Source: a virus (taxonomy: Duplodnaviria; Heunggongvirae; Uroviricota; Caudoviricetes). Taken from it: a stretch of 40,856 nt of DNA. The stretch covers positions 1-40,856 of the IMG/VR virus record IMGVR_UViG_2561511241_000004; one strand, 5' to 3'. A model generated the notes under the pieces. The model was not told the DNA's origin. It was given only the letters and a program-made list of their open reading frames with translations, and did no database searches. Positions 4,553-39,810 of this stretch are shown here, piece by piece. How positions within the stretch are numbered: the stretch's first letter is position 1; each line of letters starts with the position of its first letter. Position numbers and translations under genes: made by a program.

Positions 4553-4744
4553 TTAAAGACCTGCCGGGATTTCGATATTATCCTGGTGAATAACTTTATC
4601 GACCGGGTAACAGTTACCGGGAATTTTCTGTTCGGTTGCTGCAGTCATACACTCCTGCATTGTCCTGTGAACACTGACTGCAATATCAACTGGCTCTCCG
4701 GAAACAAGAAAAACTGTCAGAACAAGCACAAATGCTGAATTCAT
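4553..4744 (-). CDS. ydfD: YdfD-like small membrane (lysis) protein, 63 aa
   Basis: 63 aa with N-terminal hydrophobic segment; start overlaps the dicB stop (ATGA); position matches Qin ydfD downstream of dicB. Confidence 0.6.
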   Translation of the reverse strand: MNSAFVLVLTVFLVSGEPVDIAVSVHRTMQECMTAATEQKIPGNCYPVDKVIHQDNIEIPAGL

Positions 4745-4929
4745 TGTGCACATCCTTTTGGCATCAGACGTAAACGAGCCAGCATTGAAACAATGCATAT
4801 TTTATTTAATAGCTCCCGTTCTTGTTTTCTCTTGTTAATGGCATCTTCAGTAAATACAGGGTTACTGATAGTGACACCAATTTCAAAACAACCTTCAGAC
4901 GTATTAACGTTTGGTAATAACGTTTTCAT
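4741..4929 (-). CDS. dicB: cell division inhibitor DicB (62 aa)
   Basis: Translation MKTLLPNVNTSEGCFEIGVTISNPVFTEDAINKRKQERELLNKICIVSMLARLRLMPKGCAQ matches my recollection of DicB; GAGGA RBS. Confidence 0.8.
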   Translation of the reverse strand: MKTLLPNVNTSEGCFEIGVTISNPVFTEDAINKRKQERELLNKICIVSMLARLRLMPKGCAQ

Positions 4930-5104
4930 TATCGCGTCCTCAACAATGAATTTTGTGATGCAGTGCCTGGTGCCTCCAGGTGACGTTAACCAGTTAACAA
5001 TTAACGCCGGATACAGAGAATCCACCCATAACACTGTTTTTGGTTTTAACTGTTCCGCGTGCGCTTAGCCGCATTCACCGCATCACAAAATTCACTTTAA
5101 AAAA

Positions 5105-5158
5105 GGGCGGCAGAGCAGTCACGGAGTAAAAACTGATACCGCCAAACGTCACCAGAAA
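5105..5158 (-). ncRNA. dicF: DicF small RNA (ftsZ-targeting, Hfq-dependent in K-12)
   Basis: Minus-strand sequence UUUCUGGUGACGUUUGGCGGUAUCAGUUUUUACUCCGUGACUGCUCUGCCGCCC followed by a U-run; matches recollected DicF; sits just upstream of dicB as in Qin. Confidence 0.75.
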
Positions 5159-5725: not shown

Positions 5726-6110
5726 TATCCACAGAGCCTAAAGTATGTGCATATGGATGTGCTATTGTGCGCCCTCGCAGATTTGCATCATTTTCTAAAT
5801 TCACTGAACGAAACAGGGCATCAACAAGGCTCTGTACAATGCAAAGGCAATCGAAGACTGTCGCTGTTTCTGTTTTGATTGATGAAAGAACATGGCCATT
5901 CACGCAAACAGAAATTACCCGTTCATTAACATCGCTTTCCTGCTTTTGATTATCAGAACCATATAGCCCAGAAAAAGCATTGCGCACATTACGAACCATA
6001 TTATCGATGGTTTCTTTTTTGGTGTATGCCGGGTCAATTTTCACCAGACTATCACCGAGAGTCGTTGCAGCAATTGTCTGGATTTCTTTTGGTAAATCTT
6101 TAAATTCCAT
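5703..6110 (-). CDS. hypothetical protein (135 aa) in an AT-rich island between ydfC and the dicF precursor
   Basis: Good ORF with a GAGG RBS, immediately downstream of ydfC; no family recognised. Confidence 0.55.
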   Translation of the reverse strand: MEFKDLPKEIQTIAATTLGDSLVKIDPAYTKKETIDNMVRNVRNAFSGLYGSDNQKQESDVNERVISVCVNGHVLSSIKTETATVFDCLCIVQSLVDALFRSVNLENDANLRGRTIAHPYAHTLGSVDIKDPTNL

Positions 6111-9441: not shown

Positions 9442-9867
9442 GTGGCAAAAGTTTTTACACAAGAAGAGCGGGAAAAAATTAAAGGGCAGGTTGTTGAACT
9501 TGTACGCCAGAGTGGGCGCGAGACGTTACGTCAACTGGAAGCCAAGACAGGTGCGACAAGATATCTGATGAGCGTTCTCGCAAGAGAGCTGGTTGCCAGC
9601 GGCGATGTATACAACTCTGGTTACGGGTTATTCCCGTCTGAACAGGCTCGTAAGGACTGGCAAAATGCCCGCAAAAAACTCTCAAGGGCAAAGCTGAAGA
9701 AAAAAACATCTGTGGTTGATCCGGACCTTATCTGGTCGTTACCAGACGGAGAAATACGCCGCTATGACAGGCGTCTGAACATAATCTGTCGCGAGTGCCG
9801 GAATAGTGAAGTTATGCAGCGTGTACTGGCTTTCTATCAGGGGAATTTTCAGGAGGCGGCGCAGTGA
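9442..9867 (+). CDS. hypothetical protein (141 aa, GTG start)
   Basis: AGGAGG RBS 5 nt upstream of the GTG; no helicase-loader or AAA motifs seen. Confidence 0.5.
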   Translation: MAKVFTQEEREKIKGQVVELVRQSGRETLRQLEAKTGATRYLMSVLARELVASGDVYNSGYGLFPSEQARKDWQNARKKLSRAKLKKKTSVVDPDLIWSLPDGEIRRYDRRLNIICRECRNSEVMQRVLAFYQGNFQEAAQ

Positions 9868-10064
9868 GCAGGATTGACTACCAGGAATTGGCTGCTGCTA
9901 ACGCTTCCCTGGCTGATGTACGGGCGGTGGCGTTTAACGACCTTTGCGCGGCGTTTGCCAGGCACGCAAAAGTTGCAGGACTGGATGATGCCGATACCGT
10001 AACGCTTAAGGAAGTGACAGAAGCATTGTTGCATTGTGCGGAACAGATTCGCGCGCCTGAATAA
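9864..10064 (+). CDS. hypothetical protein (66 aa, GTG start, GTGA overlap with the upstream gene)
   Basis: AGGAGG RBS 7 nt upstream; translationally coupled. Confidence 0.4.
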   Translation: MSRIDYQELAAANASLADVRAVAFNDLCAAFARHAKVAGLDDADTVTLKEVTEALLHCAEQIRAPE

Positions 10065-10159
10065 TTAAATTTAGTGTTGTAAATAAAATTTAATCCTTAA
10101 CCGGAGGGATTTCTGCACCCTCAGAACATCAGGAGGCCGCCCGAAAGGGCGGTAATGAA

Positions 10160-10342
10160 ATGCGAAAGTTCAGAATAATTATTGAAACGGGAATAGCTGG
10201 TGGAGATTTTGAGGATGTATTCGAAGTGGATGATGGTGCGACACCAGATGAAATACAGGACGAAGCAAAAGAAATTTTCTTTAACTACTGCAATTACTCA
10301 TATCACGAAATAAAAGATGAGGAGGAAGAACAAAATGGCTGA
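10160..10342 (+). CDS. small highly acidic protein (60 aa, about 18 D/E)
   Basis: Preceded by a GNRA-loop hairpin; strongly negative net charge. Confidence 0.5.
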   Translation: MRKFRIIIETGIAGGDFEDVFEVDDGATPDEIQDEAKEIFFNYCNYSYHEIKDEEEEQNG

Positions 10343-10511
10343 TTTTGGTTCAACTAAATACAACGTCAGTTTTGAAGAATGGCATGAACTGTTAATGGAC
10401 TATGCAGAGTTACGCGGTGGAAGTGCCGCTGATGCTGAAGCATGGCGTTATGACTACGAAGCAGGAAAAACTCCGGTCGAAGCATATTGTGATGAGTGGG
10501 GCGATGAATGA
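10335..10511 (+). CDS. small highly acidic protein (58 aa, about 15 D/E)
   Basis: GAGGAGGAAG RBS; overlaps the upstream stop and the downstream start (ATGA). Confidence 0.5.
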   Translation: MADFGSTKYNVSFEEWHELLMDYAELRGGSAADAEAWRYDYEAGKTPVEAYCDEWGDE

Positions 10512-11023
10512 GCGAGATTAATTATCAGGAAGGACATGAAACGGCAGGGCAGGCAAAACCAGTTGCATGGCGATATCGCTACGTGAAAAAAGGCATTACG
10601 GACTCACAGGGGGAGCCGTGGGTTGGTGACTGGAAATATGTACCGACAAAAGAGGATTGCAACGACAGGCCGAGCTATGAAATTCAGGCGTTATTCACTG
10701 CCCCGCCTGTGCCACTGACATCAGAAGGACTGGTTAAAGCCGTGCGCTTTTATGAACAGGTAAAGCGTGAGAATCCACCAGTCGAAACAGGAGCATGGAA
10801 AGATGCTGTTGATTGGGTACTCAAAGAGGCCTGCAGTGCTGTCATTCTGGGTAAAGCCGACAACCCACCAGCTTCCGGCAATCAGGTTAGCGAATTAACA
10901 ATGTGGGTTAAACGACTGGTCAGCCAACTGAAAAAAGCCAAGCCGGACTGCAAATTACCGGAGAAGGCGATGGACTACCTGAAGCGAAACGGACTGATAA
11001 GCGTGGAGGATGTTTTACGGTGA
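10508..11023 (+). CDS. hypothetical protein (171 aa)
   Basis: Translationally coupled to the acidic pair; no family recognised. Confidence 0.55.
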   Translation: MSEINYQEGHETAGQAKPVAWRYRYVKKGITDSQGEPWVGDWKYVPTKEDCNDRPSYEIQALFTAPPVPLTSEGLVKAVRFYEQVKRENPPVETGAWKDAVDWVLKEACSAVILGKADNPPASGNQVSELTMWVKRLVSQLKKAKPDCKLPEKAMDYLKRNGLISVEDVLR

Positions 11024-11162
11024 GATAGTAAATGCATGTAATGAGACGGGGGGGGTGAGGGGAGGCTTCATCTGGATAGATCTTGCACCGTTCATATGTT
11101 ATAAAAACAATTCCTACTGTTAAATCGTTGTTTGTTTTAGTTGCTATATTTAAGGAGTGAAT

Positions 11163-11420
11163 ATGCAGTTAATTGTTGATTACCCAGATCATAACATTTA
11201 TTCATCTTTTGTGGATGCGGATGCTGAACTTCGAGAGTTAAATGGTGGGGCAGTAGTTGTAATAACGGTAAAAATACCTCTTACTAGCACATCGGAACAG
11301 TTGTTTAATAAATACACTTGCGGGGAAAGTCTTCGTATTAAATTGAGGAATGGCGATGAATGGAAAATGTATTTCGTTATGCTTGATGGAGGGCGCTATA
11401 TATTTTCCTCGCACCTGTGA
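11163..11420 (+). CDS. hypothetical protein (85 aa) in AT-rich DNA
   Basis: Strong AAGGAG RBS 5 nt upstream of the ATG. Confidence 0.5.
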   Translation: MQLIVDYPDHNIYSSFVDADAELRELNGGAVVVITVKIPLTSTSEQLFNKYTCGESLRIKLRNGDEWKMYFVMLDGGRYIFSSHL

Positions 11421-11673
11421 TAAAAATGATGAGCCGAGACTGTATTTACGGGACGCTGAGAGAATACCATAGAAAAGCTTATCTAACTTAAGTAGAATTG
11501 CTGCGGGTGCTTGAGGCTATCTGCCTCAGGCATGAACACCAAAGGCAGATAGAGAAAAGCCCCAGTTAACATTACGCGTCCTGCAAGACGCTTAACATTA
11601 ATCTGAGGCTCAATCTATGAACGGCAAATCTAGGTTAGCCTCTTACGTGCCGAAAGGCAAGGAGAAGCAGGCT

Positions 11674-11829
11674 ATGAAGCAGCAAAAGGCGATGTTAATC
11701 GCCCTGATCGTCATCTGTTTAACCGTCATTGTGACGGCACTGGTAACGAGGAAAGACCTCTGCGAGGTACGAATCCGAACCGGCCAGACGGGGGTCGCTG
11801 TCTTCACAGCTTACGAACCTGAGGAGTAA
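11674..11829 (+). CDS. hokD: Hok/Gef-family type I toxin (HokD/RelF-like, 51 aa)
   Basis: MKQQKAMLIALIVICLTVIVTALVTRKDLCEVRIRTGQTGVAVFTAYEPEE; AGGAGA RBS; in-frame upstream extension from 11617; mRNA 5'/3' complementary elements present. Confidence 0.8.
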   Translation: MKQQKAMLIALIVICLTVIVTALVTRKDLCEVRIRTGQTGVAVFTAYEPEE

Positions 11830-15243: not shown

Positions 15244-15319
15244 GGCCCTTTAGCTCAGTGGTGAGAGCGAGCGACTCATAATCGCCAGGTCGCTGGTTCA
15301 AATCCAGCAAGGGCCACCA
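15244..15319 (+). tRNA. tRNA with anticodon CAU (Ile2/Met type, ileX/ileZ-like)
   Basis: Clean cloverleaf: 7-bp acceptor stem, GCTC/GAGC D-stem, anticodon loop CUCAUAA, TTCAAAT T-loop, CCA end; very similar to E. coli ileX. Confidence 0.8.
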
Positions 15320-15320
15320 G

Positions 15321-15397
15321 CCGCCACTAGCTCATCAGGAAAGAACGTCAACCCTTTAAGTTGAGTGTGCGAGGTTCGAGTCCCCGGTGGCGGTCCA
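15321..15397 (+). tRNA. tRNA-like gene with unusual anticodon loop CCUUUAA (C at position 33); identity uncertain
   Basis: Perfect 7-bp acceptor stem, TCAAC/GTTGA anticodon stem, TTCGAGT T-loop, CCA end; mismatches in D- and T-stems. Confidence 0.5.
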
Positions 15398-15399
15398 GT

Positions 15400-15476
<77 letters not shown>

Positions 15477-15479
15477 TAT

Positions 15480-15554
<75 letters not shown>

Positions 15555-39226: not shown

Positions 39227-39810
39227 TGGCATTCAGAATGAGTGAACAACCACGGACCATAAAAATTTATAATCTGCTGGCCGGAACTAATGAATTTATT
39301 GGTGAAGGTGACGCATATATTCCGCCTCATACAGGTCTGCCAGCAAACAGTACCGATATTGCACCACCAGATATTCCTGCTGGCTTTGTGGCTGTTTTCA
39401 ACAGTGATGAGGCATCGTGGCATCTCGTTGAAGACCATCGGGGTAAAACGGTTTATGACGTAGCGTCAGGGGACGAGTTATTTATTTCTGAACTCGGTCC
39501 GTTACCGGAAAATGTTACCTGGTTATCGCCGGAAGGGGAGTTTCAGAAGTGGAACGGCACAGCCTGGGTGAAGGATACGGAAGCAGAAAAACTGTTCCGG
39601 ATCCGGGAGGCGGAAGAAACAAAAAACAACCTGATGCAGGTAGCCAGTGAGCATATTGCGCCGCTTCAGGATGCTGCAGATCTGGAAATTGCAACGGAGG
39701 AAGAAACCTCATTGCTGGAAGCCTGGAAAAAGTATCGGGTGTTGCTGAACCGTGTTGATACATCAACTGCACCTGATATTGAGTGGCCTACGAACCCTGT
39801 CAGGGAGTAA
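39226..39810 (+). CDS. tfa: tail fibre assembly protein (Tfa)
   Basis: 194 aa, [18 protein letters not shown]... Tfa family; immediately follows stf. Confidence 0.85.
39656..39810 (+). repeat. direct repeat copy 1 (tfa 3' region, about 85% identical to 40697..40856)
   Basis: Aligned by eye: gcgcc(g/a)ct(t/g)caggatgctg(c/t)agatctggaaat(t/c)gcaacggaggaagaaa... Confidence 0.6.

Follow-up and report, generated by a model that had tools for sequence, protein, structure and literature searches.

Positions 10160 to 11023 of the window (the whole stretch of 40,856 nucleotides that was analyzed) hold a cassette of three accessory genes that are translationally coupled to one another; the cassette belongs to the early rightward operon of an E. 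coli prophage that is lambdoid and Rac/Qin-like. ORF1, ORF2, and ORF3 are real genes under purifying selection. The products of ORF1 and ORF2 are small, globular, and unrelated to each other, and each moves between mobile elements without need of the other; ORF3 encodes a mosaic protein in a slot held elsewhere by Ead/Ea22-like proteins. The explanation that we tentatively favor combines this coupled cassette, and a split Shine-Dalgarno (SD) sequence aided by a hairpin, with a role of ORF1 and ORF2 as electrostatic decoys that would block host nucleic-acid-binding proteins.

A three-gene cassette in the early operon

The three genes of the cassette are as follows.

10160-10342, + strand: ORF1, 60 amino acids (aa), D+E 30.0%, net charge -13, pI 4.05
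10335-10511, + strand: ORF2, 58 aa, D+E 25.9%, net charge -11, pI 4.08
10508-11023, + strand: ORF3, 171 aa, pI 7.6, near-neutral

A replication initiator gene (phrog_3729) and then a DUF977/Ren-like gene precede the cassette, and hokD, DUF968, rusA, and Q follow it, which bears out the position in the early region past the replication genes given by the initial annotation. The same annotation described the genes as early accessory cargo with translational coupling and the first two products as extremely acidic, and it was right in these respects. The genes are joined by stop/start overlaps, ATGGCTGA (8 nt) between the ORF1 stop and the ORF2 start and ATGA (4 nt) between the ORF2 stop and the ORF3 start, and the D+E fractions of ORF1 and ORF2 both lie above the 99th percentile (21%) of all window ORFs of at least 50 aa.

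PGAP predicts the identical three genes in a genome that is 100% identical across positions 10060 to 11100. A start for ORF2 at 10317 was considered and set aside; position 10335 is favored by PGAP, by the SD spacing, and by an MADF N terminus that is conserved in unrelated contexts. Estimates of pN/pS were 0.10 for ORF1 and 0.06 for ORF2, both from 80-odd related loci, and 0.30 for ORF3. In 79 of 80 close IMG/VR loci, ORF1 is the neighbor immediately upstream of ORF2, and of 5426 complete E. coli genomes, 1749 (~32%) carry the pair. The opposite reading, in which the ORFs have no function and are either fortuitous frames or remnants in decay, could draw on an internal stop found in 5 of 30 distinct ORF1 nucleotide variants and on the frameshifted fragments that are frequent among database entries. 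We consider it extremely improbable: it is already contradicted by pN/pS values of 0.06 to 0.10 over dozens of variants and by an ORF2 family of 136 clusters at 50% identity, and it must also contend with the conservation of both families across distant phages and plasmids, with confident fold predictions for ORF1 and ORF2, and with canonical SD motifs.

Shine-Dalgarno motifs and the leader hairpin

Signals for expression of the cassette were located in the leader of ORF1 and within ORF1 itself.

10065..10159, + strand: conserved leader of ORF1 (95 nt; a "cassette linker"), holding the SD motif and the hairpin
10131..10136, + strand: AGGAGG SD motif of ORF1, 23 nt before the ORF1 ATG (read from the sequence)
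10136..10153, + strand: RNA hairpin G-CCGCCC/GAAA/GGGCGG-T, between the SD motif and the ATG at 10160
10320..10325, + strand: AGGAGG SD motif of ORF2, 9 nt before the ORF2 ATG (read from the sequence)

Identity of the leader is 100% to its counterpart in phage pPE4 and 89 to 90% to those in Rac-442/2 and ArgO145; a second ArgO145 copy (91 nt, 90% identical; L003, positions 6016 to 6099) precedes a different gene. A scan of the leader revealed no promoter-like or terminator-like sites, and an Rfam search of the leader and hairpin returned no match. The order of AGGAGG, GNRA-loop hairpin, and ATG noticed in the initial annotation was confirmed. The stem consists of 7 bp (a closing G.U pair and six G-C pairs) capped by a GAAA (GNRA) tetraloop, and no T-run accompanies it.

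Both the minimum-free-energy and the centroid folds contain the hairpin (-24.6 kcal/mol for the 76-nt region; z = -2.2). Nearly all variants keep the hairpin; pairing was present in 94.7% of cells over the 19 sequence variants, compared with 28 to 67% when the partner columns were slid. The variants include one compensatory change from G-C to A-U and several C-to-U changes that preserve G.U pairs, and a loop change from GAAA to GGCA still conforms to GNRA. Covariation among these 19 variants was not statistically significant, as 178 of 500 shuffles did as well. Nearly every upstream variant retains the ORF1 SD motif, in the form AGGAGG or AGGAGA.

This arrangement has the features of a split SD sequence, with an SD-to-ATG spacing of 23 nt, a stable stem-loop in the gap, and 6 nt lying outside the stem. 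Split SD sequences have been described for T4 genes 38 and 25, where spacings of 22 and 27 nt are reduced by hairpins to 5 and 11 nt (PMC3014915). As in those genes, the ORF1 SD motif is too distant from the AUG, and the intervening hairpin is predicted to cut the effective spacing to ~6 nt; unlike in those genes, the leader, which is unrelated in sequence, is reused as a linker before different genes. By analogy with the T4 genes, the hairpin most likely shortens the SD-to-start distance of ORF1, and it would thereby bring a strong AGGAGG from 23 nt to ~6 nt of the AUG. The ORF2 SD motif is encoded by GAG GAG codons in the acidic tail of ORF1. Translation of ORF2 would begin from this AGGAGG within ORF1 glutamate codons, at an ATG that overlaps the ORF1 stop, and ORF3 translation would restart at the ATGA overlap with the ORF2 stop.

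Protein families and their genomic neighbors

The absence of a recognizable family, as given in the initial annotation, needs correction: ORF1 belongs to DUF7167, ORF2 matches phrog_519, and ORF3 matches phrog_660, all of which are catalogued as families of unknown function. ORF1 matches the full length of the Pfam DUF7167 model (PF23768; positions 1 to 60 of 60; E value of 9.1e-13) with a score of 48.5 bits, above the gathering threshold of 24.4, and also matches phrog_1997 (E value of 8e-29); the identical RefSeq protein is named "DUF7167 family protein." An AlphaFold2 model (pLDDT 82) places strands at residues 2 to 9 and 16 to 23 and a helix at residues 29 to 43, so that the predicted architecture is a beta-hairpin and a helix followed by a disordered acidic tail. 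Family members have net charges of -8 to -18, and relatives were found in Klebsiella, Enterococcus, and Phapecoctavirus phages and on Pseudomonas plasmids. Distant members of this family and of the ORF2 family were retrieved with an alignment of artificial ORF1+ORF2 fusions as the query.

The match of ORF2 to phrog_519 (E value of 1.3e-21) is confined to profile positions 76 to 137 of 143, so that ORF2 represents the C-terminal domain of this PHROG; neither Pfam nor NCBIfam yielded a family match. The AlphaFold2 model (pLDDT 87, pTM 0.72) is a three-helix domain with helices at residues 13 to 26, 35 to 42, and 47 to 55. The family carries the signature F-x-x-W ... A-W-x-x-D-Y-x-x-G-x-T-P ... 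W-G, in which L20, W37, G44, and G56 are invariant and F13, W16, and Y41 nearly so. Invariant residues are mainly aromatic or glycine rather than acidic, and D33 and D40 are the only acidic positions that are nearly invariant. Among 94 stand-alone relatives, 75 have a net charge of -5 or lower (mean, -7.8) and 8 have a net charge of 0 or higher.

Relatives of ORF2 occur in lambdoid, N15-like, P2-like, T7-like, and Vi01-like phages and on IncI2, IncT, and MOBH plasmids. The family is almost unchanged in lambdoid and P2-like prophages and in the IncI2, IncT, and MOBH conjugative plasmids and is more distant in the virulent T7-like and Vi01-like phages. A copy with 88% identity is present on ~413 plasmids, of which those examined are IncI2; its distance from the mobC/relaxase genes is ~15 kb, and it falls past repA on what is presumed to be the leading side. 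In Vi01-like phages, the homologue adjoins the major capsid gene, not early genes. Another setting is the P2 variable locus, where one relative is accompanied by an nSTAND1 ATPase gene. A "DUF5419" label on a Morganella phage homologue of ORF2 was discarded as irreproducible, since the protein had no match in Pfam.

Each of the two genes is also found alone, without an Ea22-like neighbor, in many phages and plasmids, and the neighbors of relatives are typical of early, establishment, and DNA metabolism functions, including exonucleases, gpA, two DNA methyltransferases, and ParB-like, Ea22-like, and DUF551 genes. Some of these associations would fit a role of ORF1 and ORF2 as accessory subunits of the replication or recombination machinery of the element, in which an acidic surface or tail would dock in the DNA-binding cleft of a phage or plasmid enzyme to regulate it or recruit partners; SSB and T7 gp2.5 use their acidic C-terminal tails in this way. 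Acidic C-terminal tails recur, and in Klebsiella Guernseyvirinae and Enterococcus Herelleviridae, which are unrelated phage groups, the DUF7167 gene overlaps that of an exonuclease. The gene immediately before the ORF2 homologue is gpA in P2-like prophages and a metallophosphoesterase gene in phiKDA1; in a Serratia prophage, the homologue comes right after two DNA methyltransferase genes, and in Alux-21, right after ParB-like and ATPase genes. In rare cases the ORF2 domain is fused to another protein or domain: GemA, a ribbon-helix-helix domain (HicB/NikA-like), or a protein with an N terminus that is ParB-like by eye but had no Pfam match. However, no single partner is conserved, since the adjoining enzyme varies between all lineages; the neighbors in the window and in most E. 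coli prophages are accessory genes, not enzymes; and adjacency to enzymes may merely mirror the way in which early operons mix replication and accessory genes. We regard a subunit role as quite unlikely.

ORF3 matches phrog_660 (E value of 2e-74) and, partially, five other PHROGs. Its modules circulate separately: residues 1 to 28 are constant and resemble the N terminus of lambda Ea22, the module at residues 27 to 115 is found in Stx phages and phage Av-05, and the module at residues 108 to 171 is found in N15, ST64B, and SP-016. Across 80 IMG/VR loci, residues 1 to 28 are nearly always retained while the remainder is swapped. ORF3 did not match Pfam Ead_Ea22 (PF13935) at E values up to 1, and its alignments with lambda Ea22 and with the ArgO145 Ea22-like protein end after the first 16 to 23 residues; the ArgO145 protein in the equivalent slot matches PF13935 with an E value of 3.5e-39. 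In both ArgO145 and L142, ORF2 is followed directly by a Pfam Ead_Ea22 gene through an ATGA junction, the position that ORF3 takes in the window. ORF3 shares with lambda Ea22 the N-terminal motif MSEIN(Y)Q and a similar multimodule mosaicism (PMC8614690), but it lies in the nin-equivalent region and not, like the lambda genes, between exo and xis.

The constancy of the ORF3 N terminus, together with the tight stop/start coupling, the order of ORF1 and ORF2 in all but one of the close loci, and the ATGA junction that also links ORF2 to Ea22-like genes, would fit a single complex in which the acidic pair serve as chaperones or adaptors docking on the N terminus of whichever protein fills the ORF3/Ea22 slot. 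This is very improbable. Both acidic genes occur apart and without an Ea22-like neighbor elsewhere, their net charges make mutual binding unlikely, and the constant N terminus is equally explicable as a DNA-level recombination or coupling joint.

The same slot bears on another possibility, that ORF1 and ORF2 modulate the development of the phage itself, in the lysis-lysogeny decision or in prophage induction via host regulators, and have no anti-defense role. They can be likened to exo-xis proteins of lambda and of Stx phages (Ea22, Orf60a, Orf61, Orf63, and Orf73); the exo-xis genes are described as small, early, poorly conserved, and affecting lysogenization (PMC8614690; PMC7093339, PMC3824215). 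In Stx phage ArgO145, the ORF1-ORF2 pair lies in an int-proximal accessory block that is the exo-xis equivalent, between two Ead/Ea22-like genes, and an Ea22-like N terminus is found both on ORF3 and on a 66-aa ORF upstream of the cassette. This developmental role seems doubtful, as it is weakened by the presence of both families in strictly virulent phages (Phapecoctavirus, Herelleviridae, Ackermannviridae, and Autographiviridae) and on conjugative plasmids, which have no lysogeny decision to make. Nor did ORF1 or ORF2 show sequence similarity to any characterized exo-xis protein in Pfam and PDB searches.

Candidate functions of the acidic pair

The initial annotation had proposed ORF1 and ORF2 as candidate DNA-mimic anti-defense proteins. 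Ocr (T7 gp0.3) and ArdA (of conjugative plasmids and transposons) are small, extremely acidic proteins that are expressed on entry and counter restriction by mimicking DNA. Mimics of the Ocr type are reported to trigger PARIS. Like Ocr and ArdA, ORF1 and ORF2 are encoded by mobile elements among entry-expressed genes, are small, and have a net charge per residue of about -0.2; their negative charge is conserved within each family, a trait of Ocr, ArdA, and ArdB/KlcA proteins. The conservation of acidity in both families across very distant phages and plasmids is the main support, though indirect, for a decoy or DNA-mimic role, and the spread of both families over many kinds of mobile elements may indirectly support an anti-defense reading of such mimicry.

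Homology searches brought this proposal no further. None of the three proteins matched an anti-restriction, anti-defense, or defense family in Pfam, PHROG, or NCBIfam, and PADLOC models gave no match at E values up to 1 to these proteins or to two flanking small ORFs. For ORF1 and ORF2, phmmer and profile searches of the PDB returned nothing below an E value of 0.01 and nothing relevant, fold searches gave no link to a known DNA mimic or anti-defense protein, and HMM, PDB sequence, and PDB profile searches detected no homology to an anti-CRISPR family. Homology to a housekeeping or structural family, which would have spoken against the proposal, was likewise not found for the proteins, and a literature search found no experimental work on DUF7167 or the ORF2 family. 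ORF1 and ORF2 differ from Ocr and ArdA in having no sequence, profile, or fold similarity to them, in being about half their size, and in that their conserved residues are mainly aromatic; in contrast to the elongated helical dimers of Ocr and ArdA, the models predict a beta-hairpin plus helix for ORF1 and a compact three-helix domain for ORF2. Given the lack of a homology link, the aromatic invariants, and the existence of some uncharged ORF2 relatives, we regard the pair as a reasonable screening candidate, not a discovery.

ORF1 also resembles T7 Gp2, an inhibitor of host RNA polymerase, in its length of ~60 aa, its acidity, its origin in an early phage gene, and its beta-beta-alpha order; Gp2 has a third strand. 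A comparison of ORF1 with the Gp2 family (Pfam RNA_pol_inhib, PF16857) gave no Pfam match and hhalign E values of 0.22 and 0.11 at a probability of <1%. The hhalign register, again at a probability of <1%, pairs RKF.. with KKF.., FEV with FEV, and DEA with DEA (37% identity over 38 columns).

In the decoy explanation that we tentatively favor, ORF1 would bind and inhibit one host protein whose usual ligand is nucleic acid, and ORF2 would do likewise; examples of candidate targets are a restriction or other defense enzyme, a recombination nuclease, RNA polymerase, and a nucleoid protein. A dense negative surface, carried on a conserved aromatic core, would act as the electrostatic decoy, and the two proteins would be host-takeover or counter-defense factors that aid establishment of the element in a new cell. 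In favor of this explanation are the acidity shared within both families, the compact folds predicted for both proteins, and the early, establishment, and DNA metabolism genes beside their relatives. The Vi01-like homologue beside the major capsid gene and the IncI2 copy, which is not clearly in the leading region, weigh against this explanation. A bolder form of it, which we think rather unlikely, holds that very different mobile elements share, in the ORF2 family, a new inhibitor directed at a single conserved host hub of nucleic acid handling or immunity and that DUF7167 is a second, unrelated inhibitor reaching Gram-positive phages; these would be two new anti-defense or host-takeover families, carried by roughly one-third of E. 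coli genomes.

As things stand, the cassette is ordinary lambdoid accessory "dark matter" whose families are already catalogued without a function. The split-SD leader, as a reused cassette linker, provides a small, neat case of mosaic phage genes retaining expression signals. Screening could be directed at the ORF2 family, a well-defined target with 136 clusters, a confident three-helix model, and prophage and IncI2 copies that are 88% identical. If ORF1 or ORF2 neutralizes a host defense or DNA-handling enzyme, the known counter-defense families would be joined by one or two more, both very small in size and very widespread; with the pair in ~32% of complete E. coli genomes and an ORF2 copy on ~413 plasmids, this would be relevant to the host range of therapeutic phages and to the spread of plasmids.

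The cassette is a coupled early accessory unit with a mosaic third gene

Three overlapping ORFs lie at positions 10160 to 11023 of the window. Their coordinates, the acidity of the first two and the stop/start overlaps, as given in the initial annotation, were all confirmed in the sequence.

Cassette ORFs and their neighbors.
9864-10064: 66-aa ORF; GTG start; Ea22-like N-terminal motif SRIDYQEL
10160-10342: ORF1; 60 aa; D+E, 30%; net charge, -13
10335-10511: ORF2; 58 aa; D+E, 26%; net charge, -11
10508-11023: ORF3; 171 aa; pI 7.6
11163-11420: 85-aa ORF just 3′ of the cassette; AT-rich (GC, 0.34-0.39); hypothetical protein by PGAP

The junction sequences are ATGGCTGA (ORF1/ORF2) and ATGA (ORF2/ORF3), and the D+E content of both acidic ORFs lies above the 99th percentile of all window ORFs of at least 50 aa. 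The ORF2 start was placed at 10335 rather than 10317, in agreement with the PGAP call; further backing comes from the AGGAGG that lies 9 nt before it (10320-10325) and from the MADF N-terminus, which is conserved across unrelated contexts. This AGGAGG is made by GAG GAG codons in the ORF1 acidic tail (region 10311-10342), and therefore the tail and the downstream translation signal share bases. Across ~80 related loci, pN/pS was 0.10 (ORF1), 0.06 (ORF2), and 0.30 (ORF3, constant N-terminal part only); by this sequence-based measure, all three are genes under purifying selection. That the ORFs are non-functional is contradicted by this selection and by their conservation and is extremely improbable.

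E. coli chromosomes with a lambdoid prophage adjoining potC match the region around the cassette at 100% identity. Upstream lie int, xis, a large exonuclease gene, ydfD, dicB, a LexA-family repressor gene, a Cro/CI-family gene, and ydaT, followed by a replication initiator gene (phrog_3729), a DUF977/Ren-like gene, and the 66-aa ORF. Downstream of ORF3 are the 85-aa ORF, hokD/sok, DUF968, rusA, Q, four tRNAs, lysis genes, and terminase. This gene order places the cassette in the early rightward operon, the equivalent of the lambda nin region, and bears out the earlier view that it follows the replication genes. RNA genes were taken from Rfam matches over the gathering threshold.

RNA genes in the window.
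5105-5157, - strand: DicF small RNA
11505-11679, + strand: sok antitoxin RNA of the hokD locus
15244-15551, + strand: four clustered tRNA genes preceding the lysis genes
39569-39767, + strand: IS009 RNA

Three modules make up the mosaic ORF3. The first (residues 1-28) is present in nearly all cases and is similar to the N-terminus of lambda Ea22 (MSEINxQ); the second (residues 27-115) is found separately in Stx phages and phage Av-05, and the third (residues 108-171) is found in N15, ST64B, and SP-016. ORF3 had been described as belonging to no recognizable family; it does match phrog_660 and, in part, five other PHROGs but fails the Pfam Ead_Ea22 model. True Ead/Ea22-like proteins, unlike ORF3 in having that match, hold elsewhere the slot that it fills here. 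Ea22 proteins have been described as multidomain and variable (PMC8614690). Besides phrog_27745, the 66-aa ORF matches phrog_492 and phrog_368 in their C-terminal parts, and it looks like another Ea22-type mosaic fragment, so that Ea22-like pieces lie on both sides of the acidic pair. The 85-aa ORF had no significant match in Pfam, PHROG, NCBIfam, or PADLOC.

The leader of ORF1

The 95 nt upstream of ORF1 (the leader, 10065-10159) carry a distant Shine-Dalgarno (SD) motif and a hairpin.

10131-10136: AGGAGG, 23 nt from the ORF1 ATG
10136-10153: GNRA hairpin of 7 bp, spanning the SD-ATG gap with 6 nt left over

No T-run follows the hairpin, no promoter or terminator was predicted, and Rfam gave no match to the leader. 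The layout matches that of T4 genes 38 and 25, whose split SD sites need a hairpin for efficient initiation; there, the hairpin shortens the SD spacing from 22 to 5 nt and from 27 to 11 nt (PMC3014915). Over a set of 19 variants, pairing of the stem stands at 94.7%. One double substitution turns G-C into A-U, several C-to-U substitutions leave G.U pairs in place, and in one loop change GAAA becomes GGCA, which is still GNRA. Shuffles equaled the observed pairing in 178 of 500 trials, so this covariation is no proof of hairpin structure.

A 91-nt leader copy, 90% identical, precedes a different 72-aa gene in Stx phage ArgO145 (locus L003, 6016-6099), with partial copies at two other gene boundaries (4737-4781 and 5001-5026), and several other lambdoid phages match the leader only, as an intergenic piece. 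At module boundaries, the leader behaves as a portable linker for expression. A few database proteins (P0144, P0167, P0142, and P0002) have it read in frame, with an Ead/Ea22 domain or N-terminal extension fused to DUF7167; the leader-derived extension includes TGGISAPSEHQEAARKGG. Cluster P0002 (139 members) has the usual ATG replaced and starts further upstream. The window leader frame is open for 22 codons ahead of the ORF1 ATG.

ORF1 and ORF2 represent two unrelated, independently mobile families

ORF1 belongs to Pfam DUF7167 (48.5 bits against a cutoff of 24.4) and also matches phrog_1997. ORF2 has no family in Pfam or NCBIfam and matches the C-terminal part of phrog_519. The pair occurs in 1,749 of 5,426 complete E. 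coli genomes (coverage of ≥80%), and ORF1 lies immediately 5′ of ORF2 at 79 of 80 close IMG/VR loci; even a relative with an ORF1 of just 69% identity retains the pair. ArgO145 carries it in an int-proximal accessory block, flanked by two Ead/Ea22-like genes. We give very low probability to a single complex formed by all three products.

Relatives of the acidic proteins elsewhere.
DUF7167, Klebsiella Guernseyvirinae phages: overlaps the gene for a 454-aa exonuclease
DUF7167, Enterococcus Herelleviridae phages: overlaps the gene for a 166-aa exonuclease
DUF7167, Phapecoctavirus phages
DUF7167, Pseudomonas plasmids: beside PRTRC genes
DUF7167, Lactococcus and Streptomyces phages: by fold similarity only
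ORF2, ~413 plasmids (those examined, IncI2): 88% protein identity
ORF2, IncT/Rts1-like plasmids and MOBH Klebsiella plasmids
ORF2, Vi01-like Ackermannviridae: adjoins the major capsid gene
ORF2, T7-like phage phiKDA1, phage Alux-21 (read here as N15-like), and a Morganella phage
ORF2, P2-like Salmonella prophages (L137-L140, 4001-4189): overlaps the gpA end, at the edge of a variable region before the portal gene
ORF2, Serratia prophage: after two DNA methyltransferase genes

The IncI2 copy (plasmid pSH146_65, locus L011, 7601-7904) has the same 8-nt overlap, with a 44-aa DUF1187 gene as the preceding partner in place of DUF7167, a CaiF/GrlA-type regulator upstream, and SPFH and NfeD genes downstream; its 88% identity suggests recent prophage-plasmid exchange. 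The variable region of one Salmonella relative (L138) includes a gene for an nSTAND1 ATPase, possibly a defense gene. An exhaustive profile search gave 136 ORF2 clusters at 50% identity, nearly all stand-alone proteins of 49 to 75 aa. In rare fusions, the domain is attached to GemA, a HicB/NikA-like ribbon-helix-helix domain, or a protein with an N-terminus that looks ParB-like by eye, though without a Pfam match.

The exonuclease overlaps, in two unrelated virulent phage groups (L005, 3001-3171; L007, 2501-2671), may hint at a recombination-linked role of DUF7167. A role as accessory factors for replication or recombination enzymes of the element itself is suggested by recurring but inconsistent neighbors, and we consider this reading improbable. 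Modulation of the lysis-lysogeny decision is somewhat less improbable but still unlikely, weakened by the presence of both families in virulent phages and plasmids.

Acidity and candidate function

Net charge ranges from -8 to -18 among ORF1 relatives. Stand-alone ORF2 relatives average -7.8, with -5 or lower in 75 of 94 and 0 or above in 8, some of which look like genuine members. Acidity is mostly a constrained trait in both families. Invariant ORF2 positions are L20, W37, G44, and G56, and F13, W16, Y41, and W55 are nearly so; the only nearly invariant acidic residues are D33 and D40.

AlphaFold2 models were built on alignments widened by a search with a fused ORF1+ORF2 query. Both proteins are predicted to be compact: ORF2 would form a three-helix domain (helices 13-26, 35-42, and 47-55; pLDDT 87, pTM 0.72) and ORF1 a beta-hairpin (strands 2-9 and 16-23) plus a helix (29-43; pLDDT 82), with its acidic tail at low confidence. 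A resemblance was noticed between ORF1 and T7 Gp2, an inhibitor of host RNA polymerase; hhalign recovered its register, though without significance (E values of 0.22 and 0.11). Single-sequence and profile searches found no solved structure, no PADLOC model for defense-related families matched the cassette ORFs, and a literature search found no paper mentioning DUF7167 or the ORF2 or ORF3 family.

DNA-mimic anti-defense, as first proposed, is a reasonable hypothesis that no test run confirmed. More broadly, ORF1 and ORF2 may be electrostatic decoys: each would bind a host nucleic-acid-binding protein, and this binding would serve host takeover or counter-defense. We hold this reading tentatively, because the positive evidence comprises just conserved charge and spread over many kinds of mobile element and because all homology and fold tests were negative. 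Since the families are very common and already catalogued with function unassigned, they would be no surprise to a specialist. The best candidate for experimental screening is the ORF2 family.
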